DNA of 64,000 nt, taken from the NCBI GenBank assembly GCA_050506795.1, contig JBJHCF010000005.1, positions 64,001 to 128,000 of the forward strand. Direction: 5' to 3'. The notes beneath the pieces were generated by a model that worked only from the letters and a program-made list of their open reading frames with translations, searched no databases and was not told the DNA's origin. Position 1 is the stretch's first letter. Each line of letters starts with the position of its first letter. Shown here one piece after another: positions 42,449 through 59,743 of the stretch. Both the position numbers and the translations under genes were made by a program. The stretch is from Opitutia bacterium (GTDB lineage: Bacteria > Verrucomicrobiota > Verrucomicrobiia > Opitutales > T3Sed10-336).

Positions 42449-43411
42449 ATGGAAAGAATTCTCCTCACCACCACTTCGTTCCAGGATACTCCGGGACCTC
42501 ATCACGACCGGCTGAAGGAAGCCGGATATGAGATCGTTAGGGAGAGGGGGCCGCTTCCCGAAAGCCGTATGCTGGAGCTGGTCGGCGATGTTGACGCTTT
42601 CCTCTGCGGTGATGACGCCATCACCCGGGCGGTGCTGGAAAAGGCGCTTCCCCGCCTGAAGGTGATCAGTAAATACGGGATTGGCCTGGACAAGGTCGAT
42701 GTCGCTGCGGCCACTGAGCTCAAGGTGCCGGTGACCTTTTGTCCCGGGGTGAATCACACTACCGTGGCAGAGCACACCTTCGGGCTCCTGCTGGCCATCT
42801 ATCGTCAACTTGTCACCGAGTGCAATCACGTCAAGGCGGGCCGATGGAAACGGCTTACTGGGCACGAATTGATGGGCAAGACCATCGGAATCGTCGGATT
42901 GGGCCGTATTGGCCGCGAGGTGGCGCTGCGAGCCCGCGTGTTCGGCATGAAAGTCATGGCGTACGATTTGTATTGGGATGAAACCTTCGCCGCGGACAAC
43001 CAGATCGAGCGGGCGGCGTCCTTCGACGAAATCTTTCGCGCGGCCGACGTAATCAGCCTGCACACCAACCTCAACGATCAGACCCGGGGCATGGTCAACG
43101 CCGATTCTCTCGCCCTGATGAAGCCGCATGCCGTGCTCCTGAACTGCGCCCGAGGAGAACTCGTCGATACTGCGGCCCTGGTGGCAGCGCTAAAGGAGAA
43201 TCGCATAGCCGGATACGGCACCGACGTGCTGGATCAGGAGCCGCCGCCATCCGATCATCCATTGTTCGCCTGTGAGAACGCCGTGATCACACCACACATC
43301 GGTTCACGGACCTATGAAAGCGTGGTCCGCCAGGCGGGCATGGCGGTTGACAACCTTATCGCCGTGCTGCGGGGTGAGACTCCGCGGGCGCAGGCCAACA
43401 AGATCGACTGA
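42449..43411 (+). CDS. D-2-hydroxyacid / phosphoglycerate dehydrogenase family protein
   Basis: GIGLDKVD, GIVGLGRIG, NCARG, DVLDQEP, TPHIG. Confidence 0.88.
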   Translation: MERILLTTTSFQDTPGPHHDRLKEAGYEIVRERGPLPESRMLELVGDVDAFLCGDDAITRAVLEKALPRLKVISKYGIGLDKVDVAAATELKVPVTFCPGVNHTTVAEHTFGLLLAIYRQLVTECNHVKAGRWKRLTGHELMGKTIGIVGLGRIGREVALRARVFGMKVMAYDLYWDETFAADNQIERAASFDEIFRAADVISLHTNLNDQTRGMVNADSLALMKPHAVLLNCARGELVDTAALVAALKENRIAGYGTDVLDQEPPPSDHPLFACENAVITPHIGSRTYESVVRQAGMAVDNLIAVLRGETPRAQANKID

Positions 43412-43429
43412 CCTCCCGCCGTTGCCGTT

Positions 43430-44518
43430 ATGAGCGAAACCTATCACATTGTTCCCGAGGAAACCCACAACGCACTGGTGGTGGCCGCGTATCGACACCG
43501 CGGTTACACGGAAGACGAGGCGAATGACGCCGCCCGATTCTGTGTCGAAGCGGCGCGCCACGGTATCCGCACCCACAACGCCATCAAGGCGCTGCACCTC
43601 GACCACCTTTTCGGCAGCGGGGCCGCGGGCTGTGTGCCTGGCGCGGAAATCGAAGTGCTCTCCAGCCGATTTGCCGCGACCGCGGTGTGGAATGCCAATC
43701 GCAAGCTCGGCCAGTCGGTCGCTTACCGCGCTATGGAGGCCTGCATGGAAATGGCCGACAAATTCGGTGTGGGCGTAGTCAGCGTCGATAATGCTTTTCA
43801 CTATCTTTGGGGCGGGGGATACGTCATGGAGGCGGCCAAAAAGGGTTACATCGCCTACACCAATTGCACCGCCGCGCTGGCCGAGGTCGTGCCATTCGGA
43901 GGGAAACTCCCCACCCTGGGAACCAACCCCCACAGTTGGGGATTCCCCACCATGGAGGCGCTGGGATATCCGATCGTCATCGACTGGGCCACTTCGGTGG
44001 TGGCCATGGGAAGGGTGCAACAGTTTAAGCGCGAGGGTAAAACGTTGCCGCCTGACGCCGCGGTGGACGCCGACGGCAACCCCACCACCGATCCGGCGAA
44101 AGCCGTGGCCCTGTTGCCTTTCGGCGCGCACAAAGGTTACGGACTGAGCCTGATCAATGAGCTGACGGCCGCCTTCATTGGGGGTTCGCTCCCCACTCTG
44201 CGCAGTCGCTGGGCCGCCGATGGCGACAAGCACACCCCTAACTTTTTCTTTCAGGTGATCCATCCTGAGGCCCTGGATGGGCGAGATTTTGCCCGCGGAC
44301 GCACGCAGCAGGAAAATCTGAGAGCCGTTCTCGGCGATTTGTTACAGGACGGAAATGCGAACTGCATTCTTCCCGGTCAGATCGAGGCTGAAGCCGCCGC
44401 GCTTTCGGCTCGCCACCGCGGATTGCTCTTTTCGCGGGCGGAGATCGAAGCGTTTAATGAAATTGCGACCGAATGCGGACATCCCGCTTGGGATCCGCAG
44501 GCCTTTGCGACCACCTGA
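43430..44518 (+). CDS. Ldh_2 (type 2 malate/L-lactate dehydrogenase) family oxidoreductase
   Basis: GIRTH, LGTNP, IDWATS, GNPTTDP, PFGAHKGYGL. Confidence 0.85.
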   Translation: MSETYHIVPEETHNALVVAAYRHRGYTEDEANDAARFCVEAARHGIRTHNAIKALHLDHLFGSGAAGCVPGAEIEVLSSRFAATAVWNANRKLGQSVAYRAMEACMEMADKFGVGVVSVDNAFHYLWGGGYVMEAAKKGYIAYTNCTAALAEVVPFGGKLPTLGTNPHSWGFPTMEALGYPIVIDWATSVVAMGRVQQFKREGKTLPPDAAVDADGNPTTDPAKAVALLPFGAHKGYGLSLINELTAAFIGGSLPTLRSRWAADGDKHTPNFFFQVIHPEALDGRDFARGRTQQENLRAVLGDLLQDGNANCILPGQIEAEAAALSARHRGLLFSRAEIEAFNEIATECGHPAWDPQAFATT

Positions 44519-44609
44519 TCGCCGGCTGTGAACGTCGACATGCCTTTTGGCTGGGGTTGCGGGCCGCACCTTGGCCTTATCGAATTAGAATCCATTCTCT
44601 TTTTAGACC

Positions 44610-45710
44610 ATGAGCGATATGAAAATCAAACCCGCCGATGCCTGTGAATTCGATCTCCTTGCGCTGGGAGAAGTGATGCTGCGCCTCGATCCCGGCGAGG
44701 GTCGTGTGCGTACCGCGCGCTCGTTTCGCGCCTGGGAAGGCGGCGGCGAGTACAACGTGGCCCGCGGCTTGCGCCGCTGTTTCGGCCTGCGCACCAGCGT
44801 GGCGACCGCGTTCGCCGAAAACGACGTCGGGCGGCTGATCGAGGATTTTATCCTGCAGGGCGGCGTGGATACCTCGCTGATACGCTGGGTGCCGTACGAC
44901 GGCGTGGGGCGTGCCGTGCGGAACGGTTTGAACTTCACCGAGCGTGGTTTCGGTATTCGCGGGGCGGTTGGAGTGCCCGACCGCGGGCTCACGGCGGCGT
45001 CACAGCTCAAACCCGGTGATTTCGACTGGGAGGATATCTTCGGCCGGCGCGGAGTGCGCTGGTTTCACACCGGGGGGATTTACGCGGCGCTTTCCGAAAC
45101 CAGTGCCGCCGTGGTGGAGGAAGCCGTCACCGCGGCGCAAAAGCACGGTACCATCGTGTCCTACGACCTCAACTACCGCCCTTCACTGTGGAAATCCATC
45201 GGCGGTCATGCCAAGGCTCAGGAGGTGAACCGGCGTATCGCCCGAAAGGTCGATGTGATGATTGGGAACGAGGAGGACTTTACCGCCTGTCTCGGATTTG
45301 AGGTGGAAGGGGTTGACGAAAACATCTCCACTATCGAGGTCGACAAGTTCAAATCGATGATTTCCCGAGTGGTACGTGAGTTTGACAACTTCAAGGCCAC
45401 CGCGACAACTCTGCGCACCGTAAAGACCGCCACGATCAACGATTGGGGGGCGATTTGCTGGCATGACGGAAAGTTTTACGAGGCCACCCAGCGCGAGAAT
45501 CTCGAAATCCTGGATCGGGTCGGGGGAGGGGACAGCTTCGCTTCCGGCCTGATCTACGGTTTCCTCGCCACCGGTGATCCGCGGAAAGCGGTCGAATACG
45601 GGGCTGCCCACGGCGCCCTGGCCATGACCACCCCCGGTGACACCTCGATGGCCAACCTGGCCGAAGTCGAAAAAATTATGTCCGGCGGGGGGGCACGTGT
45701 GGTACGGTGA
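44610..45710 (+). CDS. kdgK: 2-dehydro-3-deoxygluconokinase (PfkB family)
   Basis: LGEVMLRL, GGGEYNVA, SYDLNYRPSLW, DRVGGGDSFASG. Confidence 0.85.
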   Translation: MSDMKIKPADACEFDLLALGEVMLRLDPGEGRVRTARSFRAWEGGGEYNVARGLRRCFGLRTSVATAFAENDVGRLIEDFILQGGVDTSLIRWVPYDGVGRAVRNGLNFTERGFGIRGAVGVPDRGLTAASQLKPGDFDWEDIFGRRGVRWFHTGGIYAALSETSAAVVEEAVTAAQKHGTIVSYDLNYRPSLWKSIGGHAKAQEVNRRIARKVDVMIGNEEDFTACLGFEVEGVDENISTIEVDKFKSMISRVVREFDNFKATATTLRTVKTATINDWGAICWHDGKFYEATQRENLEILDRVGGGDSFASGLIYGFLATGDPRKAVEYGAAHGALAMTTPGDTSMANLAEVEKIMSGGGARVVR

Positions 45711-45734
45711 TCGTTCGCTCAACCGGAAACTCGA

Positions 45735-46532
45735 ATGACTGAAGCCATGTCTCAAAATTATTTGTACGATCTCTTTTCTCTGCAAGGCAAGGTGGCCGTC
45801 GTCATCGGCGGGACCGGGGAACTCTGCGGCACCATGGCGGAGGGTCTCGCCGGCGCCGGCGCCGAGGTAATCCTGGTCGGTCGCAAGGAGGAGAAAGCCC
45901 GGAAACGGCTGGCGGCCATCGAGAAACTCGGAGGGAAAGCCACCTTTTTGGCTGCCGATATCACCACTCGCAGCAGCCTGGAGTCGTTGCTCAAGGAGTC
46001 GCTGGAAATCGCCGGAAAAGTCGACATCCTCGTCAATGGCGCCGGCGTCAATTCGGCCACCCCGTTTCTCGAGATCCCGGAGGACGAATTCGACACGATC
46101 ATCGCCACCAACCTCAAGGCGGTGTTCCTGGCCTGTCAGGTCTTCGGGAGCTACTTCGTCGATCGCGGACAACCGGCCTCGATCATCAACGTCGGTTCCA
46201 TGTCGGGAGTGACTCCTATTTCGCGGGTCTTCACCTACTCCGTGAGCAAGGCCGGGGTGCACAACCTTTCCAAAAATCTGGCCCGTGAGTGGGCGCAGAA
46301 AAACATTCGGGTGAACACGCTGGTCCCTGGATTTTTCCCGGCTGAACAGAATCGCAAGGTGCTGACTCCGGACCGGATTGATACCATCATGGGGCACACT
46401 CCCATGAATCGGTTTGGCCGGGCGGAGGAATTGATCGGAGCGACGCTTTTGCTGGCCTCCGACCGGGCCGGATCGTTCATCACCGGGGAGGAACTGCTGG
46501 TCGACGGCGGTTTCGCCGCCATGACCATCTGA
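45735..46532 (+). CDS. SDR oxidoreductase (D-mannonate oxidoreductase/UxuB-like or gluconate 5-dehydrogenase-like)
   Basis: [31 protein letters not shown]; next to uxaC. Confidence 0.8.
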
Positions 46533-46553
46533 GCCCAACCCGATTGCGTACCC

Positions 46554-47972
46554 ATGTCCGTTTTCATCACCGACGACTTCCTCCTGCACAGCGCCTCCGC
46601 CCGCGAACTCTATCACGATTACGCCGCCCGGGAGCCGATTTTCGATTACCATTGCCACCTTCCGCCGGCGGAGATCGCCGAAAACAAGTCGTTTCCCAAT
46701 CTGGGGAATATTTGGCTGGCCGGCGACCACTACAAATGGCGGGCCATGCGCGCGAACGGGGTCGAGGAGCGTTTCTGCGGGGGTGACGCCGGCGACAAGG
46801 AGAAGTTTCTCGCTTACGCCCGGACGGTGCCCCGGACCGTTCGGAATCCTTTGTATCACTGGACTCATCTCGAGTTGAAGCGGTTCTTCGGGATCGACAC
46901 CCTGCTCAATGAAGAGACGGCGGAGGAGATTTGGGAGGAAACCCGGGAGAAGCTGGCGCGGCCCGAAATGTCTGTGCACGGTATTCTGACCAATCACCGG
47001 GTATCCGTCATATGCACCACCGACGATCCGGTGGATACGCTGGAGTTTCATCGCCAAATCGGCGAAAACGGTACCCTGGCCACCCGGGTGTACCCGACGT
47101 TTCGGCCGGACAAGGCGCTCTCGGTCGATCAACCCGAGGCTTTCAATGCGTGGATCGACCGTCTGGCGGAAGTCAGCGGGGTGGATTGCGCCAGCCTGGA
47201 TTCTTTTTTGGAGGCCCTGAAGCAGCGTCACGACTTCTTTCACGAAATGGGCTGCCGGTTGTCCGATCACGGCATGACGCATTGTGACGACGCCGACTGC
47301 ACCGATGCCGAGGCGCGGGTGGCGTTTGACAAGGCGCGCGCCGGAAAAGCGGTTCCGGCAGATGAGGCGGTCAAATTCCGCAGTTACATGATGGTTTTTT
47401 TCGGTCGTCTCGACGCCGACCGCGGGTGGACCAAGCAGCTTCACCTCGGCGCCATGAGGAACAACAACACCCGCCGTTTCCGGGAACTCGGTCCCGACAC
47501 CGGATTCGACTCGATTGGAGACTACCCCCAGGCCCGCGGTTTGGCCGGGTACCTGGACCGCCTGGACCGTACCGGCCAGTTGCCCAAGACGATACTCTAC
47601 AACAACAACCCCACCGATAATTACATTTTCGCGACCATGATCGGCAACTTTCAGGACGGCAGCGTTCCCGGAAAGATGCAGTTCGGATCCGGCTGGTGGC
47701 ATCTTGATCAAATCGAGGGAATGGAATGGCAACTCAACGCGTTGTCCAATCTCGGTCTCCTCAGTCGCTTTGTCGGGATGCTTACCGATTCGCGCAGCTT
47801 TCTGTCGTATCCCCGTCACGAATACTTTCGCCGCATTCTCTGCAACCTGATCGGTCGTGACGTGGAGAACGGCGAGTTGCCCCGCGACATGAAACTGCTT
47901 GGCGGCATCGTGCGCGATATCTGCTTCCGCAACGCCGAGGCGTATTTCGGGCTCGAGACCGGAACGGTCTAA
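46554..47972 (+). CDS. uxaC: Uronate isomerase
   Basis: DYHCHL, DHYKWRAMR, NPLYHWTHLEL, CTTDDP, GMLTDSRSFLSYPRHEYFRR. Confidence 0.97.
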   Translation: MSVFITDDFLLHSASARELYHDYAAREPIFDYHCHLPPAEIAENKSFPNLGNIWLAGDHYKWRAMRANGVEERFCGGDAGDKEKFLAYARTVPRTVRNPLYHWTHLELKRFFGIDTLLNEETAEEIWEETREKLARPEMSVHGILTNHRVSVICTTDDPVDTLEFHRQIGENGTLATRVYPTFRPDKALSVDQPEAFNAWIDRLAEVSGVDCASLDSFLEALKQRHDFFHEMGCRLSDHGMTHCDDADCTDAEARVAFDKARAGKAVPADEAVKFRSYMMVFFGRLDADRGWTKQLHLGAMRNNNTRRFRELGPDTGFDSIGDYPQARGLAGYLDRLDRTGQLPKTILYNNNPTDNYIFATMIGNFQDGSVPGKMQFGSGWWHLDQIEGMEWQLNALSNLGLLSRFVGMLTDSRSFLSYPRHEYFRRILCNLIGRDVENGELPRDMKLLGGIVRDICFRNAEAYFGLETGTV

Positions 47973-48056
47973 ACGCCTTTTCCGTCCTGCGACGGCATTC
48001 GGCCGGCTTAAAAATACGGATTGAGCCCCGTTGCCGGGGCGCTAGGGTTTATCGGC

Positions 48057-49190
48057 ATGGCTGACGCAACAAAACAGGAGAATCCGTTCGACTCGGTGGA
48101 ATCGGCGATCGAGGTGATCGCGAGCGGCGGGTTGGTGGTGGTGGCCGATGACGAGAACCGCGAGAACGAGGGAGACCTCGTCATGGCCGCAGCCAAGGCC
48201 ACTCCGGAAAGCGTCAACACGATGATCCTGCACGCCCGCGGCCTTATTTGTGTTCCGACGACCAGCCATCAGCTAAAACGGCTGGGGATCAATCAAATGG
48301 TAGCGGAGAATCGCGACCCCTATCGGACCGATTTTTCGGTTTCGGTGGACGCCGCCGAGGGAATCACCACAGGAATCAGCGCCTATGACCGTTGCCGTAC
48401 GATTCGCCTGCTGGCGGACCCGGCAAGCCGCCCCGACGACCTTGTGCAGCCGGGGCATATTTTTCCCTTGCGGGCCAAGGCGGGCGGAGTCCTTCAGCGT
48501 GCCGGTCACACGGAGGCTGCGGTCGATTTGGCCGCCCTGGCCGGACTTCATCCCAGTGGGGTGATTTGTGAGATTCTCAACGAAGACGGTACCATGGCCC
48601 GCCTGCCGGAACTTATTGCCTTCAAGAAGCGTTTCGGATTCCCGATGATTTCCATCGCATCGCTCATCGAATACCGGCGGCGGCGCGAACGGCTGGTGGA
48701 GGAGACCCATCGGCGTCCCTTCGAGTCGGAGTTTGGGACTTTCGTCCTGCGCCTTTTTCACAGTCGCCTGGATGATCGATATCACCTCGCCTTCACTATG
48801 GGCGACCTCGATGGTTCTCCCACGTTGGTTCGGGTACACAGCGAAAACGTTTTGAGCGACGTCTTTCGCGCCAAAGCGTTCGGCAGTTACCATTCCCTGG
48901 TCGATTCGCTCAGCATGGTCGCTCGCGAAGGCAAGGGCGCCGTGATCTATATCGGGCAGCCGCACGATAGCGTTCACCAAATGCTGAACGATACGCCCGA
49001 CCATATCTCGGCCGATAAGGCTCGGGGCGTCGCCAAAGCGGCTCCGGAGTTTCGGGATTACGGTATCGGCGCTCAGATTCTGGTGGCTCTGGGTCTTCGA
49101 AGAATCCGGCTCCTGACCAGCCACAGCCGGCATGTGGTCGGCCTGGAGGGTTATGGTTTGGAGATTGTGGAGCAAGGTCCGCCCAAGTGA
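48057..49190 (+). CDS. ribB: DHBP synthase fused to a degenerate GTP cyclohydrolase II domain (RibBX-type)
   Basis: DDENRENEGD, GITTGISA, PGHIFPL, RAGHTEA; C-domain RVHSE and RDYGIGAQIL but no Zn-binding cysteines. Confidence 0.9.
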   Translation: MADATKQENPFDSVESAIEVIASGGLVVVADDENRENEGDLVMAAAKATPESVNTMILHARGLICVPTTSHQLKRLGINQMVAENRDPYRTDFSVSVDAAEGITTGISAYDRCRTIRLLADPASRPDDLVQPGHIFPLRAKAGGVLQRAGHTEAAVDLAALAGLHPSGVICEILNEDGTMARLPELIAFKKRFGFPMISIASLIEYRRRRERLVEETHRRPFESEFGTFVLRLFHSRLDDRYHLAFTMGDLDGSPTLVRVHSENVLSDVFRAKAFGSYHSLVDSLSMVAREGKGAVIYIGQPHDSVHQMLNDTPDHISADKARGVAKAAPEFRDYGIGAQILVALGLRRIRLLTSHSRHVVGLEGYGLEIVEQGPPK

Positions 49191-49339
49191 TTGCCTGATG
49201 GCGACCCTGTTGGCGGACGAATTCCGATGAGTGGAGTGAATGGTTCGCTATGTTTTCCGCCGGTCCGTCGCCGGGAGGCGGACGGGTCCGCACTGCAAGG
49301 CGTTTTGACTTTCCCCCGGGTCGGGCTTTGAGTTTTTCC

Positions 49340-49774
49340 GTGTCGCAGCCAGAATTCATTTATCGCACCCGGGTCCATTTTGATGAGTTTGACGCCTTGG
49401 GGATCCTTCATCACTCCCGCTACCTTCATCATTTGGAACGAGCGCAGCAGGCCCTGTTTCAGCACCTGCTCGGCGTTCCTGATTTTGATGCCGACCGGGA
49501 CGAGGATATCTACGTCGTGGTGCGCGGATTGGAGGCCCGCTTTCGCGAGCCGGTTCGCCGCCCGGGCGAGTACGCGGTTTTTTACCGTTCGCCCCGCGTC
49601 CGTGCCGCCGGCCTCGCGCTCGACTTCGACTTTGCCGGACTGGACGGAAACGTCGTTTATTGCAGCGGCAGGCGTACGGTCTGCAAGCTATCCGGGCAAA
49701 CCCATCGACCCGCCGAATGGAGCCCCCGGTTTCGGCGCGCGTTGGCGGGTTGGGCGGATGGAAGCGAGGAATGA
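49340..49774 (+). CDS. 4HBT/YbgC-like acyl-CoA thioesterase
   Basis: RVHFDEFDALGILHHSRYLHHLERA hotdog motif; GTG start inferred. Confidence 0.8.
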   Translation: MSQPEFIYRTRVHFDEFDALGILHHSRYLHHLERAQQALFQHLLGVPDFDADRDEDIYVVVRGLEARFREPVRRPGEYAVFYRSPRVRAAGLALDFDFAGLDGNVVYCSGRRTVCKLSGQTHRPAEWSPRFRRALAGWADGSEE

Positions 49775-50417: not shown

Positions 50418-51137
50418 TCACCTGGCCAACTCCAGGCTGGTTAGCGCCTGAAGGTCATTGATTCTGTCTGCCGAGGATTGGTCCGTTTCAAATTGGCTGG
50501 AGAGCAGAACGCACTGCCAGCCGGCTGCAATTGCCGGTTTAAGATCATGTTCCAGACTGTCACCAACGTGCAGAATCCGGTTGGCTGGCGTATTCAACTG
50601 CTTTTCCGCGGCGGCGAAAATTTCAGGACTGGGCTTTTCCCATCCAATCTCCGAGGAGATGATTATGGCATCAAAGGAGTCCAGCATGTCGAATCGCGCC
50701 AGAAGAGTGCGGAGACGCCGGTCCCAGTTCGAGAGTATCGCGGTACGAAATCCACGTTGGCGAAGGATGGCAATGCTTTCGCGGGTGTTCTTTCGAATTC
50801 GCCAGCGTTCCGGGTGAGCGAACGTTTCCCAGAGATCTGAGAAGACAGCGTCGAATTTCCGGGTCGACTCCAACGGTGGAATGGTTCGTTTGACGATTCG
50901 TTTCCACTTGGCGATTTCCCGGGGTTCGTCGGTGGGCCCTCCCACCGGGGTCGAGTTCGTTTTGCAGGCGGTTGCGAAACTGCGGTTTAACTCTTCGGTA
51001 TCGCCCTTCAGTCCATGGACGGCGAGGATCTCCGCATAGACTGCGCCGACGCTGGGCCAGGGGTCGAGAAGCGTTCCGCCTGCATCGAACGTTACTGCGG
51101 TGATCGGAGGAATGGAATGTGGAAGCTGCGGCGGCAT
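50418..51137 (-). CDS. HAD-IA family hydrolase (REG-2-like)
   Basis: FDAGGTL, ILSNWD, EKPSPEIF, HVGDSLEHD. Confidence 0.9.
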   Translation of the reverse strand: MPPQLPHSIPPITAVTFDAGGTLLDPWPSVGAVYAEILAVHGLKGDTEELNRSFATACKTNSTPVGGPTDEPREIAKWKRIVKRTIPPLESTRKFDAVFSDLWETFAHPERWRIRKNTRESIAILRQRGFRTAILSNWDRRLRTLLARFDMLDSFDAIIISSEIGWEKPSPEIFAAAEKQLNTPANRILHVGDSLEHDLKPAIAAGWQCVLLSSQFETDQSSADRINDLQALTSLELAR

Positions 51138-51259
51138 ACCCGGCGTGTTAATGGTGACCGTTCGTCGATCCAGTTCAAGCACTGTCCGACCAAAGGGGGC
51201 ATTGGAGTGCAAGGAAAAAGCGATTGCATGATAAGAAAAATCCGGTAATGATCATAGGG

Positions 51260-51272
51260 TATCAACGGCTTG
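51260..51272 (+). promoter_or_regulatory. IHF-binding-site consensus match in an AT-rich divergent intergenic region
   Basis: TATCAACGGCTTG matches WATCAANNNNTTR. Confidence 0.35.
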
Positions 51273-51649
51273 GTTTTAAGGGATTTACCTATGTTCGAAC
51301 TTATCTTATTGAGAGTCAGGATTTTAACGTAATTCACAGGGGTTTCGCTTTATGGTGGAAAACTGTAAGTAATTGGAATACAAGACCTTTGATTTTTTGA
51401 CTTTTCGACATGATTAATTTTCCCGTTGATTAAACTAGATTCATTGAGGTGGGAGTAATGCTTTAATTTCGTAGAGAATCTTGATTCAAACCTCTAAAAT
51501 AAATTCCGGTGTGTGACGAAGCCCGCCGGGGCAAACCAAGTTCATGTGCGTCGCCTGTCCAACGAAGCCTTGCGTTTCCAAAACCAGATGCCTGCGAGTT
51601 CCAGATGACGATTTAGCTGGACACAAATGATTCAAAAGAAGCTACGAGA

Positions 51650-53344
51650 ATGGGTGTTCCTACCAAGAATATTACCGCACCGATAGAAAGCCAACGCCTG
51701 AGCTACCTCAATAAAACAGGCCGGAAAATCATAGCTTATTATGATAGTCTGGCGGGGACGGAGATCGAGCCGTACATCGTGGTTGTGCTTCCCAAGTACG
51801 GGGAAACAAAGAAAAACAACCTCCAACTCGCTTTCACGATGGCAGCTAACGGGCTGCATGTCTTGCGTTTTGACCACACCTGCCATGTTGGCGAGAGTGA
51901 GGGAGCCATGACAGATTTTACGCTCCCAGGTGCGGTTGATGACGTTCTAACCACCTTGGACTTTGTTCAGGAGCACTTTGGGGTCAAAAAGGTCGTTTTG
52001 GTTTCGAGCAGCCTTTCATCAAGGTCTGCGCTTCGGGCGGCGGCGTTGGATTCCCGAATCAGGAAACTCGTCTGTCTGGTTGGTGTTTTTAATGTCAGCT
52101 ACACGCTTCGCGAAGTTTATCGCGAGGATCTCGTGGCAAATCATATCGACGGTAAAACCTGGGGAGTCGCTGACATACTCGGTCATGAAATCGATTTCGA
52201 TAATTTCCTTCGTGAGCTGGTCAAGGCGAACATGCACGATCTCCAGGGAACGATCTATGATTTGAGTCGAACGTCGGCTTCCGCAGCGTATTTTGGAGCT
52301 GAGAATGACCCCTGGGTGGACCGTGAAGAGGTTGCGCTTGCGCTCGGGCGCAGGAGGGATTCGGAGGTCCACCTTGTTGCCGGAGCGATGCACGAGGTTC
52401 GTGAAAATCAGGAAAAAGGAGTCGAGGTTTACGATGACATCGTCCGGGCCTGCTTCCTGGAAGGGCGACCTGAGGACAGCGTAATTCTTCGTCCGGAAAA
52501 AAAGCCGTTGCTTCGTCAGAACAAAATTGAGCGGGATTATTTGCGAAAAGCCAAGGAAAAGGATTTCGAGCCCGAAACGGACTTCTGGGGATCCTATCTG
52601 GAGAAGTACAGTTTGTTGGACCGTGTTGACGACTACCGCCGGTATCTTGATACCGTCGGCGATTTGCTCGGGCGGATTGACGGTGGAGATATTGTGTTGG
52701 ATGCAGGTTGCGGGAACGGCTTGTTTGGAGTCTGGTTGATCCGGGACGTGTTGTCCAGAAATGGACAGGGGGCAGGTTATCAGGGGCCGCCGGTTTACGT
52801 TGGGCTGGACCTGACATGCAAGGGTTTGAGTGACGCAATGATGCAGCATTGCGACGCGCAAAAACCCTCCAATGGCCATGGTGCCCTCTTGCCGGACTTT
52901 ATTTACGGTTGCATGGACCTGGATGTTTTTTCGGATCCGGAAAATAAAGGCGAATTAGCCGTGGAGTTTGGTGAAAACACCTTTGATAAGGTCTGCTGCA
53001 GCCTGCTGATTTCATACCTGAAAGAGCCCCAGCGGCTGATCGACAAGTTGTACAAGATCCTCAAACCCGGAGGTACGCTTGTTGTTTCAAGCATGAAGCC
53101 ATTTTGCGACATGTCGATGATCTACCGTGACTTTATGGACCAAAAGGTCAGCGCCGGGGAACTGGAGATGGGCCGCGATTTGCTGCGAGCTGCCGGAAAG
53201 ATCAAGATTAAGGAGGAGCTTGGCTATTATGTGTTTTTCTCGGGGGAAGAGATGAGCGCTATGGCGGATGACGCTGGATTCCGAAGGATTGAGTTTCGCG
53301 AGTGCTTTGGCGGACAGGCTCATGTTGTGAAAGCGGAGAAGTGA
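51650..53344 (+). CDS. LuxD-like acyl-ACP thioesterase fused to a class I SAM-dependent methyltransferase
   Basis: N-domain NGLHVLRFDHTCHVGESEG, SSSLSSR, VGVFN, AENDPWVDREEV, GAMHEVREN; C-domain VLDAGCGNG, FDKVCCSLLISYL, LKPGGTLVV. Confidence 0.82.
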   Translation: MGVPTKNITAPIESQRLSYLNKTGRKIIAYYDSLAGTEIEPYIVVVLPKYGETKKNNLQLAFTMAANGLHVLRFDHTCHVGESEGAMTDFTLPGAVDDVLTTLDFVQEHFGVKKVVLVSSSLSSRSALRAAALDSRIRKLVCLVGVFNVSYTLREVYREDLVANHIDGKTWGVADILGHEIDFDNFLRELVKANMHDLQGTIYDLSRTSASAAYFGAENDPWVDREEVALALGRRRDSEVHLVAGAMHEVRENQEKGVEVYDDIVRACFLEGRPEDSVILRPEKKPLLRQNKIERDYLRKAKEKDFEPETDFWGSYLEKYSLLDRVDDYRRYLDTVGDLLGRIDGGDIVLDAGCGNGLFGVWLIRDVLSRNGQGAGYQGPPVYVGLDLTCKGLSDAMMQHCDAQKPSNGHGALLPDFIYGCMDLDVFSDPENKGELAVEFGENTFDKVCCSLLISYLKEPQRLIDKLYKILKPGGTLVVSSMKPFCDMSMIYRDFMDQKVSAGELEMGRDLLRAAGKIKIKEELGYYVFFSGEEMSAMADDAGFRRIEFRECFGGQAHVVKAEK

Positions 53345-55527
53345 CATTTTATTGTGCAGTCAGTTCGTTCATAAACGCCGTCACAAGCATTGTCCTGGCG
53401 ATCTCGGTTTACCGATATCGCAAGAGCACAATGGTTGAGCTTTCCTTTGTTTGCTTCGCTCTTTCGGTTGGATTGTGGTCCGTATTCTATTTTTTCTGGC
53501 AGATTGCCGGTTCCGAAGAAGATGCAATTTCGCTGACTCGTATCCTCATGGGTGCGGCAGCGTTCATCCCGATTAGTTTTTTTTATTTTACGACGACCTT
53601 CAGGGGGTATTCGCACAAGTACCAGATGGTCTCAGGCGTTGTGATCTCCTTTTGCTTTGCGATTGTTTCGATTTCCACCTCCGGAATTGTCGCGGGCGTT
53701 TCCCCTAAGATGGGGGTTGAATATTGGCCCGATGCGGGTCCATTGTTGAAATATTATTTGCTTTTTTGGTTCTATTACGTGGTTGGAAGCATAGTGGTCT
53801 TATCTCGGGATTTTCGGCGACAACACGAGAATAAAAAGAATCAGATTAAGTATATTCTCATTGGAACGGTCATTGGTTTTACCGGTGGTGCGACAAATTT
53901 TTTCCTATGGTATGATATTCCTATTCCACCGATCGGGAACGTGCTGGTTTCGTTCTATGTGTTTGGCGTTTCATATGCGACAGCCAGATACAGATTGATG
54001 GATGTTGACCTCGCCTTGGTTAAAGGCGCGGCATTTTTTTTCGTGGTTGCTCTTGTTGCCCTTGCATATCCAGTCTCCTGGATCCTGATCGATTCCGGTG
54101 GAGCAGGTGGAAGGCAAGCGGAAATTTTTGTAAAGCAATATCTCGTTTCTTTTGTCCTGGTCGGCTTTTTGTTTTTAGCCGCGCCACGCTTCATGAAGCG
54201 TTTGAATGCTTTCGTTGAAACACAACTAAAACAATCGCAGTACAATTATAGAAATCAGTTGCGTTGGCTGATTCGGAAAATCGATCAGTTGGAGCGAAGC
54301 GAGGAGATATTCTCGAAGACGGCCACTTTTCTGTGCGACCAATTGAGCGTCGAAGCGGTCGCGGTGTTTATCCGTGAAAAGACCGCCATGAGTTTTGTGT
54401 TGCGAGCAAGAGCCGGAGCGAAGGATTTTGAGATCAGGGCGTTGGACGAGCAGGACAGTCTCGTGGAGGTTATGAATAAAGTCGGAGGAGTGATATGTGT
54501 AGAGGAACTCCGTCAGCATATCGATGCCGGTGGGGACGGCAGTCTGCCGATTGAATCCGGTGTGAGAAAATTGAGCGAGTTGGGAGTGGAGATACTGATT
54601 CCTCTGCTGACTGAGGAGCGGCTGCACGGCTTCTTTTTGCTTGGAAAACGATGGCCGAGGAATTACTACTCGGAACCGGATTTGGCTTTATTTGAAGTCT
54701 TGGGTATGGAAATTGCAGCTAGCATCAGGATTCGTGAGCTGGAGCGCCGGTCGGCTGAGAATGAGAAGCTCATGGCGTTGGGCACGATGGCTGCCGGATT
54801 GGCCCATGAGCTCAGAAATCCGATGGTTTCCGTCCAGACTTATATTTCTATGCTTGAGGATGAATGTGCCGGGCCGGTGTTGATCAAGGATACGAAGATG
54901 CTTGGAATCATTCAACGGGACCTTCGGCGTATGAACGAAATCGTTCACAACGTAGGCGCGTTTGCTCAGAACGTGCCTCTTGAGATGAATCCTGTCGATC
55001 TGCGTTCGGTAGTTGATACGGCAATCGAAGTTGAGGCTGAAAACATACAACGCAGGGATGTTCGGACCACGGTTCATTGTCAGGTCACACACCCGGTAAG
55101 AGGCGACTTTAATCAGTTGGTGCAGGTTTTTCAGAATTTGATCATGAACGCGACCCAGGCATTCCAGGAGAATCACGAGAAATTGATCACGATTACGGCG
55201 GTCGAAAAACTGGAGAATAATGGTAGGGGAGTGGTGTTGGTGACCGTTGAGGACACCGGTCCCGGGATAGATATGGAGATTATAAGAAATCTTTTTGAGC
55301 CTTTTGTGACCACCAAAGCAACGGGTTCGGTCTCGGAGCATAGAGGGATGGGGCTTGGTCTTGCTATCGTGAAGCAAATAATTGAGTCGCATCAGGGAAT
55401 TGTTGAGGCGTTCAACCGCCCGAGCGGCGGAAGTTTATTTCGGATTTTATTGCCATTAATGCAGGGTGTCCAGGTTCACGGTCAGAACGGAAATGAGAGA
55501 TTATCAATCCACCAACAGCATGATTGA
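53341..55527 (+). CDS. Membrane sensor histidine kinase (HisKA_7TM-like + GAF + HisKA/HATPase)
   Basis: About 9 hydrophobic segments, KNQIKYILIG, YATARYRLMDV, GAF (IPL..EERLHGFFLLGKR...YSEPDL), AHELRNP, NLIMNA, DTGPGI, GMGLGL; GTGA overlap with the upstream stop. Confidence 0.9.
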   Translation: MTFYCAVSSFINAVTSIVLAISVYRYRKSTMVELSFVCFALSVGLWSVFYFFWQIAGSEEDAISLTRILMGAAAFIPISFFYFTTTFRGYSHKYQMVSGVVISFCFAIVSISTSGIVAGVSPKMGVEYWPDAGPLLKYYLLFWFYYVVGSIVVLSRDFRRQHENKKNQIKYILIGTVIGFTGGATNFFLWYDIPIPPIGNVLVSFYVFGVSYATARYRLMDVDLALVKGAAFFFVVALVALAYPVSWILIDSGGAGGRQAEIFVKQYLVSFVLVGFLFLAAPRFMKRLNAFVETQLKQSQYNYRNQLRWLIRKIDQLERSEEIFSKTATFLCDQLSVEAVAVFIREKTAMSFVLRARAGAKDFEIRALDEQDSLVEVMNKVGGVICVEELRQHIDAGGDGSLPIESGVRKLSELGVEILIPLLTEERLHGFFLLGKRWPRNYYSEPDLALFEVLGMEIAASIRIRELERRSAENEKLMALGTMAAGLAHELRNPMVSVQTYISMLEDECAGPVLIKDTKMLGIIQRDLRRMNEIVHNVGAFAQNVPLEMNPVDLRSVVDTAIEVEAENIQRRDVRTTVHCQVTHPVRGDFNQLVQVFQNLIMNATQAFQENHEKLITITAVEKLENNGRGVVLVTVEDTGPGIDMEIIRNLFEPFVTTKATGSVSEHRGMGLGLAIVKQIIESHQGIVEAFNRPSGGSLFRILLPLMQGVQVHGQNGNERLSIHQQHD

Positions 55528-56959
55528 CCATAGATCAAATGCGGTCGGATTCCGATCGGGGTCTGTCGAGCGGGCGTTGCGCCGTTTTGGAGCGGCCTTC
55601 GCCCATATAGGCAGTCTGGATCGATTCACAGACGCCTTGGAAAAGGCCATGAGTGAAGCGATGTTTCTGAGGGAAGCAGTGATTCATCTGGAGGCAGAAG
55701 ATCAATCCGGCACGGCCAGGGATTGTTTCGTGGCAGGGTCATTGGTGCTTCCACTCCAGGGGAAGCAAGCGGTACGTGGAACCGTGGAGGTGCGCAGTCC
55801 CGGCGCGCTGCGCCCGTACGGTCCCGATGAACTGCGGTTGCTGTCTTCCCTGACTTCGTTTTGCGCCTCATTGGTCGAACATGCGTTCAAACACGCGGAC
55901 CAAGGCCGGGATCTGGCTATTCTGCGGTATATTTTTGATCAGCTCCCGGTCCCGGTGCTGGCCTGTACCGAGAGCGGTCGGATCCTGATCCTGAACTCGC
56001 GCGGCGCTTCCTGCCTTCGGCTTTCAAAATCCGAACCGGGGCACCTCGGGTCGGAGATTCATTCCAGGATGCTTGCGGCCTGCGAGAAGAACGGAGCTTC
56101 CAGTTTCGGCTTTTTTGTCGCTCTACCGGGCCAATTGATGAAGGCAACGGTGTCGCCCTGTCCGGCACAGGGCACGATGGAGCGGGTCTATTGCATGACG
56201 ATCATGGACCTGACGCAGGAAAGGGAGCGTCTTCGCCAAGGGCTTTTCCGAGAAGCCTTTCGTTGTCGTTGGCTGAATAAACCGCTGACCCGGATCACTT
56301 TACGCAACACAGAGAATCCTATGGCCCTTATCGAAATGCTACCCCTTTTGCGGCGTCGCCTTGGCAGTGACGACCGGGCGGGTCCGTGGGAGGAGGATGC
56401 CTTGGCCCTGGCATTTCCCGAGATCACGAAGTGGCAGGCTTTGACGGAACTCCGCGAGTGGCTGCGGACTGACCAAAGTGGCGAAATGACCGTTGGGGTA
56501 GCCATGATGGAAGCGGGATCTGATCATCCGGAAGAGATCGGTGAAGCAGAGGGCGAGGAAATTTTCCGATTGGAGGAGATGCTTCGCCCGGCGATTCTCC
56601 TGCATGACGAGAGTCAGGAGGTGAATGACTCCCTGGAATACGCCTTGCGAGGGGATTATCAGGTGGTCAAGAGCCATTGCTCCGCCGCAACCCTCGGTAT
56701 CCTCGCCGACCGGCGATTCGATGGGTTAATTATCGAACGGTATCCGCGTGACGGTGGCAGCGGGGTCGATTTGGCTCGACGTGCCGCGGAGATGAATCCT
56801 GACATCCAGGTTTTTTTCACCGGGGCTTTTGCGGAAGGAACCTGCAGTGACCTGAAGGACTTCGCGCGACCTCCGGTCGCGGTACCCAAGCCGTTCCGGG
56901 TGGATCGGCTCCTGGCACTCGTTCGCGAGTGCCTGGATGCTCGGGGTTCTGTTTCCTGA
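55520..56959 (+). CDS. Multidomain signalling protein: GAF-like, PAS, degenerate GGDEF-like, atypical receiver
   Basis: PYGPDELRLL, IFDQLPVPVLACTESGRILILN, SDDRAGPWEEDALALAFPE, ILLHDES...FDGLIIE...SGVDLAR...PKPF; ATGATTGA overlap with the kinase. Confidence 0.7.
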   Translation: MIDHRSNAVGFRSGSVERALRRFGAAFAHIGSLDRFTDALEKAMSEAMFLREAVIHLEAEDQSGTARDCFVAGSLVLPLQGKQAVRGTVEVRSPGALRPYGPDELRLLSSLTSFCASLVEHAFKHADQGRDLAILRYIFDQLPVPVLACTESGRILILNSRGASCLRLSKSEPGHLGSEIHSRMLAACEKNGASSFGFFVALPGQLMKATVSPCPAQGTMERVYCMTIMDLTQERERLRQGLFREAFRCRWLNKPLTRITLRNTENPMALIEMLPLLRRRLGSDDRAGPWEEDALALAFPEITKWQALTELREWLRTDQSGEMTVGVAMMEAGSDHPEEIGEAEGEEIFRLEEMLRPAILLHDESQEVNDSLEYALRGDYQVVKSHCSAATLGILADRRFDGLIIERYPRDGGSGVDLARRAAEMNPDIQVFFTGAFAEGTCSDLKDFARPPVAVPKPFRVDRLLALVRECLDARGSVS

Positions 56960-56972
56960 TTCGGAGCCTTTC

Positions 56973-57878
56973 ATGGACGGCTTGGAGCAGGCACGGATGG
57001 AGTGCCCGGCGAAAATCAACCTTTCTCTTTCGGTTACGGGGCGCAACGCGGACGGTTTTCATAATCTGATTTCCCTGGTGGCGCCGGTCGATTTCGGGGA
57101 TTGCCTGGAAGTCCGTCGGGAGGCTGGATCCGGGGTGTCCCTGGAGGTTGACGGTGAATCGATTCCCTCGGGAGAGGACAACCTGGTCATAATGGCGGCC
57201 CGTCTTTTTCTGCGGAATTTCTCCGCTGGCGGACGGTTTGCGTTTTTCCTGAAAAAGAGAGTTCCTGTCGGTGCGGGTCTGGGGGGAGGGAGTTCCGACG
57301 CGGTTGGGGCTTTGCTGTTGCTGAATAGGGTTCTTGGGAATCCGGCATCCGAGCGGGATCTATACACGATGGCCGGGGCACTCGGTTCCGATTGTCCCTT
57401 CTTTGTCCGGGCTTCGCCCGCGATAATGCGCGGCCGCGGCGATAAACTTGAATGGTTGACCGATCCGGAGGCTGAGCGGTTGCTGGGACGGCGTGTCATC
57501 CTTTTTAAACCTTTGCCCGGGGTTTCCACGGTTTGGGCCTATCGGGAATTGGCCCGCTCTGCCCGTTATTCGGATCCGGATCACGCGGAAGCCGTCCTTG
57601 CGGACTGGCGCGGGGGAAAAGGGTCGCTTGAGTCTCTGCTGAGCAACGATTTCGAGATTGTGGTGAGGGCTAAGTATCCGGGGATTCCGGTCCTTTTACG
57701 CGAATTGCGAAGCGATTCGCGCGCTCTGGCCATGATGAGCGGCAGCGGCAGCGCCTGCTTTCTGCTGCCGGCTGAGGGCTGCGAAGAGGGTGCGATTGCC
57801 AGGATTCAAGAAGCGTGGGGGGCGGATACGTTTTGTGTCGAAACCTTGATTGGCAAAAGGACATTGACCACGCCTTGA
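56973..57878 (+). CDS. ispE: 4-diphosphocytidyl-2-C-methyl-D-erythritol kinase
   Basis: PAKINLSL, DGFHNL, PVGAGLGGGSSDA, LGSDCPFF, NDFE, MSGSGS. Confidence 0.96.
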   Translation: MDGLEQARMECPAKINLSLSVTGRNADGFHNLISLVAPVDFGDCLEVRREAGSGVSLEVDGESIPSGEDNLVIMAARLFLRNFSAGGRFAFFLKKRVPVGAGLGGGSSDAVGALLLLNRVLGNPASERDLYTMAGALGSDCPFFVRASPAIMRGRGDKLEWLTDPEAERLLGRRVILFKPLPGVSTVWAYRELARSARYSDPDHAEAVLADWRGGKGSLESLLSNDFEIVVRAKYPGIPVLLRELRSDSRALAMMSGSGSACFLLPAEGCEEGAIARIQEAWGADTFCVETLIGKRTLTTP

Positions 57879-57976: not shown

Positions 57977-59743
57977 ATGGGGTCTGAAGTCCAAACGGAA
58001 CGGATCCTGAAAGGGATTGCCGCATCGCCGGGGGTTGCCTGGGGTAAAGTGCATCTGTTCCTTCCGCAAGAAATAGAGATTCCCGATACCCCTGTGGCAG
58101 CTGGAGGGTCGAGTGTTGAAATCGAGCGGTTCGAGGAGTCTCTGATGGTGACCCGGCAGCAAGTGGTGAAATTGCAGCGCGAGGTGGCGCAGCGCCTCGG
58201 TGACGATGAAGCAAGAATTTTTGATGCTCACCTTCTTGTCCTGGAGGACCGGGCGCTCATCGAGGAAACGATTCGCGAGATTCAGAGTACGGGAAGAAAC
58301 GTCGCGTTCTCCTTTAATCGTGTGGTCCAGCGCTACATCGATGCCTTTGCCAATATCGACGACGAATATTTGCGGGAGCGGTCGAACGATATCCGTGATG
58401 TTTCCCGGCGCATGCTGCACAATCTGATGGGCAAGGCGCAATACGGCCTGGGTCGGCTGGCCGAAGAACGGGTGATCGTTGCCCGCGATATTTCCCCCTC
58501 CGACACCGCCAATATCGAAAAGGGAAAAGTATTGGCCTTCGTTACCGATGCGGGCAGCAAGACAAGCCATGCGGTCATTATGGCCCGGTCCATTCAGGTT
58601 CCAGCAGTCGTGGGCATGCGAAACTGCACTCGGCTGCTAAGACCCGGGGATCAGGTATTGGTTGACGGATACGACGGGCTGGTTGTCATCAACCCCAGCG
58701 AAGAAACCCTTTTTCGCTACGGCAAATTCCAGGAGGAAAAACGTTCCCTCGAGAAGAAGATCCTGGCGCAAATCGGGCGCTCCACCACCACCAGGGATGG
58801 GATCAACCTCGACTTGATGGCAAACATCGAAGGACCGTCGGAGGTTGACCGCCTGCACCGTTTCGGGGCTGAGGGAGTCGGCTTGTTCCGAACGGAGTAT
58901 CTTTTCATGAACGCGGCGGAATTTCCGTCCGAAGACGAACAATTCGAAGCCTACCGCAAAGTCGCCGAGGCGATTGCTCCGGCACCGGTGACTATTCGGA
59001 CGCTTGACCTGGGCGGGGACAAATTCCCCAACAGTGTTTACCGGGCCGACTCGGAAACCAATCCATTCCTCGGGTTGCGGGCCATCCGCTTCTGCCTGGA
59101 AGACACGGGTTTGTTCAAGACACAATTGCGCGCGATTCTCCGGTCGTCCGTTTTCGGAAACGTGCGTCTAATGTATCCGATGATCAGTGGCGTCGGGGAG
59201 TTGGATCGGGCCAATGGCCTCTTGAAAGATGCCATGAAGGAGTTGGATAGCGAAGGGGTGGAATACGATAAAGCGATCAGAATCGGAGCGATGATCGAGA
59301 TCCCCAGTGCGGCTTTGACGGCGGATATTCTGGCGCGTAAATGTGATTTTTTCAGTATCGGGAGCAACGACCTGATTCAGTACCTCCTGGCGATCGACCG
59401 GGTGAACGAACGAATCGCCCACCTCTATGAGCCGACCCATCCGGCGGTGTTACGGATGATTGGATCCGTGATCGAGGCCGGTCACCGGCACAATATTCGG
59501 GTCAGCCTTTGCGGCGAAATAGCCGGGGATCCCGTCCTGGTTCCTCTGTTCGTGGGTCTGGGGATCGATGAGCTCAGTATTTCGGTTTCGGGTCTGCCCG
59601 GCATTAAATACCTTTTGCGAAACCTGAATCACGCGGATATGAAACAACTGACGGGGGAGGTGCTTGAGCTTGAGGATCCGAAGGAGATCTTCGCCCGGGC
59701 GGAAGCCTTTTACCAGCAACACCTTTCCAGCCTGATCTCCTGA
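57977..59743 (+). CDS. ptsI: PTS enzyme I (PEP-protein phosphotransferase)
   Basis: GIAASPG, TSHAVIMAR, GVGLFRTE, RTLDLGGDK, NPFLGLRAIR, SIGSNDLIQY, CGEIAGDP; no N-terminal GAF. Confidence 0.95.
   Translation: MGSEVQTERILKGIAASPGVAWGKVHLFLPQEIEIPDTPVAAGGSSVEIERFEESLMVTRQQVVKLQREVAQRLGDDEARIFDAHLLVLEDRALIEETIREIQSTGRNVAFSFNRVVQRYIDAFANIDDEYLRERSNDIRDVSRRMLHNLMGKAQYGLGRLAEERVIVARDISPSDTANIEKGKVLAFVTDAGSKTSHAVIMARSIQVPAVVGMRNCTRLLRPGDQVLVDGYDGLVVINPSEETLFRYGKFQEEKRSLEKKILAQIGRSTTTRDGINLDLMANIEGPSEVDRLHRFGAEGVGLFRTEYLFMNAAEFPSEDEQFEAYRKVAEAIAPAPVTIRTLDLGGDKFPNSVYRADSETNPFLGLRAIRFCLEDTGLFKTQLRAILRSSVFGNVRLMYPMISGVGELDRANGLLKDAMKELDSEGVEYDKAIRIGAMIEIPSAALTADILARKCDFFSIGSNDLIQYLLAIDRVNERIAHLYEPTHPAVLRMIGSVIEAGHRHNIRVSLCGEIAGDPVLVPLFVGLGIDELSISVSGLPGIKYLLRNLNHADMKQLTGEVLELEDPKEIFARAEAFYQQHLSSLIS

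Follow-up and report, generated by a model that had tools for sequence, protein, structure and literature searches.

Why should a gene for an apparent thioesterase-methyltransferase fusion overlap a gene for a polytopic membrane sensor kinase? The question is raised by a three-gene locus (positions 51650–56959) in DNA from an Opitutia bacterium (Verrucomicrobiota; assembly GCA_050506795.1), within a 64,000-nucleotide (nt) stretch of contig JBJHCF010000005.1 (positions 64,001–128,000 of the forward strand) that is called the window throughout. An earlier reading of the letters alone (the sequence-only reading) had proposed that gene 1 makes a diffusible lipid signal, that gene 2 senses it in the membrane, and that gene 3 relays it. 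The answer that we favour, tentatively and with a confidence that stays a little below even, is that genes 1 and 2 would be a signal synthase and its receptor, handling a self-made lipid signal of the Phc or Rpf kind that exists in "dialects." This reading is ranked first because the pattern in which the two genes have been replaced fits pherotype loci and is not predicted by a model in which the enzyme is purely an output or serves homeostasis. A strict enzyme-sensor pair, conserved catalytic centres, and pherotype-like replacement together make the locus a concrete and testable candidate for chemical communication.

Three overlapping genes, the first two low in GC

The locus consists of the following features, all on the forward strand:

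51213–51649, +, AT-rich spacer of 437 nt (GC 0.400), directly upstream of gene 1
51650–53344, +, gene 1, open reading frame (ORF) of 564 amino acids (aa) ending in TGA
53341–55527, + (longest ORF from 53302), gene 2, 728 aa counted from a GTG start
55520–56959, + (longest ORF from 55466), gene 3, ORF of 479 aa

At the first junction, GTGA at 53341–53344, the TGA stop of gene 1 is overlapped by the GTG start of gene 2, and at the second, ATGATTGA at 55520–55527, the ATG of gene 3 lies 8 nt ahead of the end of gene 2. All 33 homologous loci examined, i.e. those whose gene 2 match passed our coverage filter, have ATG or GTG in the column aligned to the gene 2 start at 53341. The GC content is 0.519 in gene 1, 0.479 in gene 2, and 0.584 in gene 3, compared with 0.586 in the remaining window. 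Among 32 related loci, GC falls below that of the rest of the same locus for gene 1 in 28, for gene 2 in 24, and for gene 3 in only four. ORF coordinates, junction letters, and GC values thus bear out the earlier description of three overlapping genes with low GC in the first two. The AT-rich region upstream, previously put at ∼500 nt, is present and is somewhat shorter as measured. It is presumed to be the promoter/regulatory region of the cassette; scans for the sigma-70 promoter consensus and for terminators found sites no commoner than in shuffled sequence, and no promoter was mapped.

Gene 1 is a LuxD-like hydrolase fused to a methyltransferase

The product of gene 1 is divided into three parts, of which the last is an S-adenosylmethionine (SAM)-dependent methyltransferase:

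residues ∼10–275, LuxD-like alpha/beta hydrolase, with Ser121, Asp220, and His248
residues ∼284–340, helical
residues ∼345–564, class I SAM methyltransferase, with motif I (VLDAGCGNG) at 349–357

Pfam assigns residues 60–267 to Acyl_transf_2, the LuxD family (E = 2e-22; 80.3 bits against a gathering score of 20.3), and within residues 330–545 the models Methyltransf_23, _31, _11, _12, and _25 all exceed their cut-offs. The best sequence match of the N-terminal part is Vibrio harveyi LuxD (1THT, E = 3.7e-20), and in this alignment Ser114, Asp211, and His241 of LuxD correspond to S121, D220, and H248 of gene 1. The AlphaFold model, which has a predicted local distance difference test score (pLDDT) of 92.1 and a predicted template modelling score (pTM) of 0.90, leads to the same protein. 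1THT is the best Foldseek match of the N-terminal domain (E = 1.2e-18, TM 0.85) and comes top in VIA with residues 12–303 (Z = 31.1, root-mean-square deviation (rmsd) 2.8, 280 of 293 residues aligned), followed by feruloyl esterases and lipases at Z = 27.3. Both catalytic centres are conserved. Among 56 family members, D220 is invariant, and S121, H248, and the motif I residues L350, D351, G353, C354, G355, and G357 are invariant or at least 90% conserved; D387, the acidic residue after strand 2 of the methyltransferase, is conserved too. A hydrophobicity scan found no hydrophobic segment in gene 1, whose product is predicted to be soluble. On all these counts the proposed LuxD-methyltransferase fusion holds.

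Gene 1 is nonetheless not a LuxD orthologue, because it scores ∼78 bits on the NCBIfam LuxD equivalogs (78.1 against a cut-off of 420 for NF052253, and 78.6 against 529 for NF010127). Other assignments were rejected on similar grounds: the exosortase-associated hydrolase TIGR03100 (25.1 bits against 168.45), BioC (21.8 against 184.95), and the UbiE models, which stay far under their cut-offs. No luxC, luxE, luxA, or luxB was found among the 18 ORFs scanned at 39.5–64 kb of the window, or among the flanking ORFs of related loci scanned with Pfam; the earlier statement that the window lacks these genes stands for the part scanned. Compared with solved structures, the methyltransferase profile matches generic class I enzymes only: LahSB (E = 1.2e-9), phosphatidylethanolamine N-methyltransferase, MitM, and PMTs.

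Gene 2 is a polytopic sensor kinase

The layout of gene 2 is that of a membrane-bound histidine kinase:

residues 1 to ∼285, membrane region
residues ∼321–462, GAF
residues ∼480–540, HisKA
residues ∼588–706, HATPase

Pfam identifies HisKA_7TM (PF16927; 50.3 bits against a cut-off of 28.6), HisKA (44.5 bits), HATPase_c (80.9 bits), and GAF_3, and at least seven strongly hydrophobic segments lie within the first 280 residues. The membrane region is conserved across 32 sequences from distant lineages, which keep W46, W53, W129, P130, G133, G182, N186, P197, and Y206 as well as a GGATNF.LWYDIP.PP.GN-like motif. The phospho-acceptor His489 is conserved. The PrsK model TIGR02916 aligns with residues 148–718 at 128.8 bits, against a cut-off of 300. 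Complex prediction with gene 1 and the cytoplasmic part of gene 2 (residues 295–728) scored 0.00 in both runs, which is evidence neither for nor against an interaction.

The enzyme and the kinase form a dedicated pair

Neighbouring genes in related loci were identified with a simple ORF caller and by clustering with blast; the metagenome loci have no taxonomic assignment, and counts across relatives are not independent of one another. In named genomes the search yielded 43 loci, all from Opitutaceae or other Verrucomicrobiota and with 43–63% identity. The kinase gene lies downstream of the enzyme gene in 40 of these, and the remaining three end before it could be seen, so that the pair is found in 40 of 40 loci with room. 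A metagenome scan with an alignment of the LuxD domain gave 80 loci, 69 of which have room, in that the enzyme gene is complete and is followed by at least 400 nt. All 69 have the kinase downstream, 68 of them within 259 nt and one 2 kb off. After dereplication at 90% identity, the linkage is found in 49 of 49 metagenome clusters with room.

The pairing also holds when whole genomes are compared. Of the 401 Verrucomicrobiota genomes sampled, 15 have the enzyme and 16 have the membrane region of gene 2 (E ≤ 1e-10), namely the same 15, always at adjacent coordinates, and one more. In that sole genome with the sensor and without the enzyme, the region (G224, contig 2, 249850–250572) lies within a 1300-aa open frame. 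Within the GTDB family of the Opitutia bacterium, the enzyme is found in five of 12 genomes. The pair, an enzyme followed by a HisKA_7TM-GAF kinase, recurs on a Nitrospirales chromosome (L062) and on an Omnitrophota contig (L063), so that named records of it come from Verrucomicrobiota, Nitrospirota, and Omnitrophota. An exhaustive search of representative sequences returned 1179 relatives at E ≤ 1e-3, of which 169 reach E ≤ 1e-30; longer proteins with the whole module at the C terminus are numerous among the relatives. A further genome scan with alignment A4 gave 79 distinct loci, mostly unrelated methyltransferases; its whole-module loci were two new ones and two Opitutaceae loci found again. 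The linkage is thus two-way, positional as well as phyletic, and the enzyme and the kinase are a dedicated pair. The expectation that homologues of the fusion would be linked to HisKA_7TM kinases was therefore confirmed at every level of the survey (40/40 genome loci, 49/49 metagenome clusters, and 15/15 genomes).

Joint replacement of genes 1 and 2 between congeners

The corresponding locus of a genome of the same genus (G009, locus L234) is syntenic with the window. Protein identity between the two is 96.6% for ribBA, 88.7% for a 4HBT thioesterase, 82.4% for a 176-aa ORF, and 91.4% for gene 3, compared with 49% for a HAD hydrolase, 47–51% for gene 1, 38.6% for the membrane part of gene 2, and 39.2% for its kinase core. 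At the DNA level, blastn against L234 divides the window as follows:

41577–49756, 89–91% identity
49888–50858, 74% identity
50859–55502, no match save a 64.6% piece at 51866–52242
55503–56972, 87.2% identity

The replaced block (50859–55502, ∼4.6 kb) extends from within the HAD hydrolase gene, whose 5' part it includes, across the spacer and gene 1 to near the end of gene 2, and it coincides with the low-GC block. The HAD hydrolase gene itself (50418–51212, −) looks mosaic, its 3' part having 74% DNA identity and its 5' part lying inside the replaced block.

Three genomes of the genus carry three gene 1 alleles, which are 49–53% identical pairwise. When the G009 allele is compared with that of a genome from another genus (G006), gene 1 is 72% and gene 2 is 68% identical, whereas gene 3 is only 51% identical. 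The enzyme and the kinase thus vary together in both of these comparisons, which cover few genomes (the genome of the window, G000, vs G009, and G009 vs G006), and between the congeners they do so against conserved flanks and a conserved downstream partner. As judged from these identities, genes 1 and 2 travel as a unit, uncoupled from gene 3 and from the genome, because the G009 and G006 alleles are far closer in genes 1 and 2 than in gene 3 and because the flanks are conserved between congeners.

Gene 3 is a pseudo-receiver protein outside the conserved core

Sequence models give weak GAF and receiver-like matches only for gene 3. The AlphaFold model (pLDDT 84.5), which is that of a soluble protein, shows a modular layout:

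residues ∼13–100, GAF-like domain, followed by a long helix
residues ∼146–230, PAS-like domain
residues 256–355, small alpha/beta domain
residues 355–479, receiver fold

Residues 355–479 have a CheY-like receiver fold (Z = 18.4, rmsd 2.0, 123 residues aligned), in which Glu406 takes the place of the phospho-acceptor Asp that would end strand 3. Among solved sequences, gene 3 matches the HupR D55E mutant best, and Glu406 aligns with the acceptor position in two of the three printed alignments, including the Glu of that mutant. In an alignment of 30 homologues, inspected by eye, Glu is the commonest residue in the acceptor column, with Asp in two and Asn in one. The acidic pair, the Thr, and the Lys of the receiver are retained. 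Gene 3 therefore cannot be phosphorylated at the usual Asp, and pseudo-receiver, as the sequence-only reading had it, is a fair name. The small alpha/beta domain may be a degenerate GGDEF. In Foldseek, the top matches of the whole chain are PAS-GGDEF-EAL proteins, and a profile of residues 232–358 finds GGDEF chains at weak E values of 0.32 and 0.5, with GPYDA replacing GGEEF and no Pfam match.

In named genomes, gene 3 comes next in 34 of the 43 loci, and the remaining nine end first. Of the 30 dereplicated metagenome clusters that have room, 17 contain it, and it is absent from the two annotated loci of other phyla, L062 and L063. Gene 3 is thus outside the core that is conserved and swapped, and follows the host lineage instead of the cassette. 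Given the absence of the usual Asp, the relay role once proposed for it is a guess.

Relatives carry regulatory domains and accessory genes

Most of 30 longer or more distant proteins that we scanned have PilZ, PilZ-PilZ, PilZ with a START-like domain, or REC-PAS-PilZ-PilZ before the module. In distant Nitrospirota-like loci, the gene order is (REC-PAS-)PilZ-enzyme, kinase, sigma-54 response regulator, and REC-HD-GYP. The enzyme has no regulatory domain in 40 of 57 metagenome clusters, in the window, and in Omnitrophota locus L063, and the kinase is still adjacent. Two Nitrospiraceae loci (L045, 8959–13266, and L048, 560–3739) encode REC-PAS-PilZ-PilZ forms in which the hydrolase Ser is replaced by Gly or Asp; L045 has also lost the hydrolase Asp and His. 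Neither has an adjacent 7TM kinase, but the SAM motif is retained in both, as are neighbours of the sigma-54 and REC-HD-GYP types. These forms are possibly pseudo-enzymes or methyltransferase-only variants.

A divergent GAF kinase is encoded directly upstream in all 16 long Opitutaceae loci; among the dereplicated metagenome clusters with room, 29 of 37 have it. Eight of the 16 loci also have an upstream gene for a FadL/TodX outer-membrane channel, as do 23 of 29 such clusters. A REC-HisKA-HATPase protein of ∼420–430 aa is common in the long Opitutaceae loci. The window contains none of these upstream accessory genes (GAF kinase, FadL, REC-kinase). Contig 17 of the same genome (L061, 6420–11047, −) encodes orthologues of the GAF kinase (here a REC-GAF-HisKA-HATPase protein, 40% identical) and of the REC-kinase, which is PhcR-like. 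These two genes, which flank the cassette in other Opitutaceae, lie on contig 17 directly downstream of a ketoacyl synthase gene.

In Omnitrophota locus L063 (3464–8072, +), two ketoacyl synthase genes and a gene for an FAD amine-oxidase/desaturase-like protein precede the enzyme gene on the same strand, which suggests a dedicated acyl-chain supply in that lineage. A ketoacyl-synthase link was rejected as a general feature, being found in 0 of 80 metagenome loci and seen only in L063 and on contig 17.

What the pair may do

In the mechanism that we propose, the LuxD-type domain would most likely take an acyl chain off a thioester carrier such as acyl-acyl carrier protein (acyl-ACP), by analogy with LuxD. 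The fused SAM methyltransferase would then most likely methylate the released acid, giving a product resembling a fatty-acid methyl ester. Such a hydrophobic product would partition into the membrane, be detected by the HisKA_7TM domain, and alter the kinase activity of gene 2, and the FadL-type channel encoded next to the pair in relatives may help it across the outer membrane. Output would pass to partners encoded elsewhere in the genome, i.e. the REC-GAF kinase and the PhcR-like REC-kinase of contig 17, and gene 3 would probably be an accessory adaptor, possibly tied to cyclic di-GMP (c-di-GMP). The enzyme and kinase alleles that close relatives have at this site are very different, which makes strain-specific variants probable, as in agr and comQXP pherotypes. 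In other phyla, c-di-GMP (through PilZ) or phosphorylation (through REC) might also gate the enzyme, which would close an Rpf-like feedback loop.

Several points weigh against a synthase and its receptor. The methyltransferase resembles generic class I enzymes only, and as its matches are all generic its substrate is not readable from homology; O-methylation of a fatty acid is thus a guess. In many long forms position 121 is Gly, Asp, or Asn, so that the hydrolase nucleophile is lost while the SAM motif is kept; hydrolysis is thus not always needed. The evidence for swapping comes from two same-genus contigs, one long and one short, and from a single comparison across genera, and the whole kinase has been replaced, not just its sensor part. 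Finally, as the PilZ and REC domains on the enzymes of relatives show, the enzyme is also a regulated output, which alone could explain the linkage.

This last point leads to the explanation that we rank second and hold to be unlikely, namely that the kinase responds, by way of its 7TM or GAF domain, to a cue from outside or from the membrane and controls the enzyme by phosphotransfer, c-di-GMP, or gene 3, while the enzyme remodels a membrane or envelope lipid in homeostasis of the DesK/Des kind. The REC-PAS-PilZ-PilZ and PilZ fusions speak for it, as do the adjacent sigma-54 and REC-HD-GYP regulators, a GGDEF protein encoded upstream in L215, the degenerate GGDEF-like domain that gene 3 may have, and the presence of phosphatidylethanolamine and phosphoethanolamine N-methyltransferases among the nearest solved methyltransferase sequences. 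Yet in those 40 of 57 clusters, the window, and L063 the kinase accompanies an enzyme that has no regulatory domain, and homeostasis gives no reason why the alleles should be replaced jointly while gene 3 and the flanks stay 87–97% identical. The two explanations are compatible, since the sensor in an Rpf-like scheme controls the synthase as well, and should the enzyme prove to be an output it would still represent a new enzyme class under two-component and c-di-GMP control.

Quite improbable, in our view, is an adaptation module with feedback through REC or PilZ, in which the kinase or a partner protein would be reversibly methylated by the methyltransferase and esterase-like hydrolase of the fusion, much as chemoreceptors are by CheR and CheB. 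An esterase-type fold is indeed joined to a methyltransferase and always found beside a receptor kinase, some forms have an N-terminal REC like CheB, and the best solved match of the methyltransferase is LahSB, which we take to methylate a peptide carboxylate and whose entry names it only as a SAM-dependent methyltransferase. The hydrolase, however, is closest by sequence and structure to the acyl-ACP thioesterase LuxD and not to protein methylesterases, and gene 1 has no match to the CheR or CheB families. We give even less credence to gene 1 being an ordinary metabolic enzyme (BioC/BioH-like on methyl-esterified acyl-ACP, or a detoxifying esterase) in an operon that the kinase merely regulates. 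That homologues are automatically named "pimeloyl-ACP methyl ester carboxylesterase" or "UbiE," and that there is a weak match to BioC, is offset by scores far under the BioC and UbiE cut-offs; no biotin or quinone genes were seen nearby in the window, 16 clustered genome loci, and a dozen further Pfam-annotated loci. A strict two-way link to one type of sensor, a patchy distribution (15/401 genomes), and a cassette that is swapped also argue against housekeeping metabolism.

The idea of a synthase-receptor cassette put forward in the sequence-only reading therefore gains from the linkage, the catalytic residues, and the joint swap; gene 3 falls outside the core, and the regulated-output side of the enzyme had not been foreseen. 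With more doubt than we attach to the pair in the window, we consider it possible that genes 1 and 2 belong to a widespread undescribed class of cell-cell signalling systems in Verrucomicrobiota, Nitrospirota, Omnitrophota, and possibly Myxococcota. In this class the thioesterase-methyltransferase fusion would draw on fatty-acid synthesis to make lipid methyl-ester signals, the 7TM-GAF kinase would sense them, c-di-GMP would gate the synthase in some lineages, and paired exchange would create dialects. We found no paper on the LuxD-methyltransferase fusion, its PilZ forms, or its pairing with HisKA_7TM in the published literature, where HisKA_7TM turned up in two census papers only. Verrucomicrobiota, Nitrospirota, and Omnitrophota are abundant in soils, waters, and engineered systems, and to our knowledge chemical communication is almost unknown in them. 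Such a class would link lipid signals to c-di-GMP through PilZ-fused synthases, and we know of no description of a PilZ-type control point for known autoinducer synthases.

Neighbouring genes

Two genes follow gene 3 on the same strand:

56937–57878, +, ispE
57977–59743, +, ptsI

The ispE ORF, taken at its longest, shares 23 nt with the end of gene 3. The true start may be a later ATG (56973 or 56997), because family models align only from residue 18–21. Neither gene adjoins the cassette in any of the 43 related loci, and both were rejected as parts of the system. Two further ORFs lie on the other side of the cassette:

39531–41243, +, ShlB/FhaC-type outer-membrane transporter of two-partner secretion, with POTRA and ShlB domains
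45183–47819, −, 878-aa ORF with no Pfam match at E ≤ 0.001

The 878-aa ORF is 79.6% identical over 431 aa to a sequence in the same-genus genome and is therefore probably a real gene of unknown family.

Comparison with known systems

LuxD, a myristoyl-ACP thioesterase/acyltransferase encoded in bacterial luciferase operons, is the closest match by both sequence and structure to the hydrolase part of gene 1, which keeps its Ser-Asp-His triad. Gene 1 differs in having ∼21% identity over the structural alignment, in scoring below the equivalog cut-off, in having a methyltransferase fused to it, and in that lux genes were not seen nearby. Gene 2 resembles PrsK, the kinase of the XrtA/PEP-CTERM system and partner of PrsR, in its polytopic N terminus followed by GAF, HisKA, and HATPase, and distant relatives of the cassette have a sigma-54 regulator beside the kinase. 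Unlike PrsK, gene 2 stays under the equivalog cut-off, and exosortase/PEP-CTERM genes were not seen in the annotated loci.

In logic the cassette comes closest to Rpf and to the phcBSRQ quorum-sensing operon of the Ralstonia solanacearum species complex, which is also similar in layout. The methyltransferase PhcB makes methyl 3-hydroxymyristate, the kinase PhcS senses the 3-hydroxy fatty-acid methyl ester, and PhcR is a soluble protein composed of a receiver and a histidine kinase (PMC8578825; PMC11960443). Both operons have the gene for a SAM methyltransferase first and that for a membrane sensor kinase second, and a protein with the architecture of PhcR is encoded by relatives in their extended locus and by contig 17 here. 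They differ in that gene 1 has a whole LuxD-like domain, gene 2 has HisKA_7TM and GAF, and gene 3 has no Phc counterpart. No PhcB-like match was found by tblastn against plasmids, an Atlas search with the methyltransferase part returned generic methyltransferase clusters only, and among 301 sampled Burkholderiales genomes (a tally that includes one unpublished genome) the methyltransferase profile gave generic partial matches of 28–40 bits, within profile positions 98–257, in 51. The ORF layout of the three matching Burkholderiales loci that we inspected is not phc-like.

In the DSF/Rpf system of Xanthomonas, RpfF releases a fatty-acid signal from acyl-ACP, RpfC is a polytopic kinase, the REC-HD-GYP protein RpfG lowers c-di-GMP, and the synthase is under post-translational control. 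The cassette has no domain in common with it: its enzyme is not a crotonase, its kinase is not of the hybrid RpfC type, and the window encodes no HD-GYP or PilZ. The logic, in contrast, is the same, and distant members of the cassette have REC-HD-GYP and sigma-54 regulators and PilZ on the enzyme. To call the cassette unlike RpfF/C, as was done from the sequence alone, was too strong as far as logic is concerned, considering that these distant members sit with REC-HD-GYP as rpfF and rpfC do with rpfG.

In the agrBDCA and comQXPA loci, which use peptide signals, the signal-making gene and the receptor co-diverge among close relatives. These loci encode unrelated proteins, and the cassette differs further in swapping the whole kinase and in that its evidence comes from few genomes. 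What it shares with these pherotype loci is the joint divergence of the (here putative) signal gene and receptor, the conservation of the downstream partner and flanks, and alleles that cross species boundaries.

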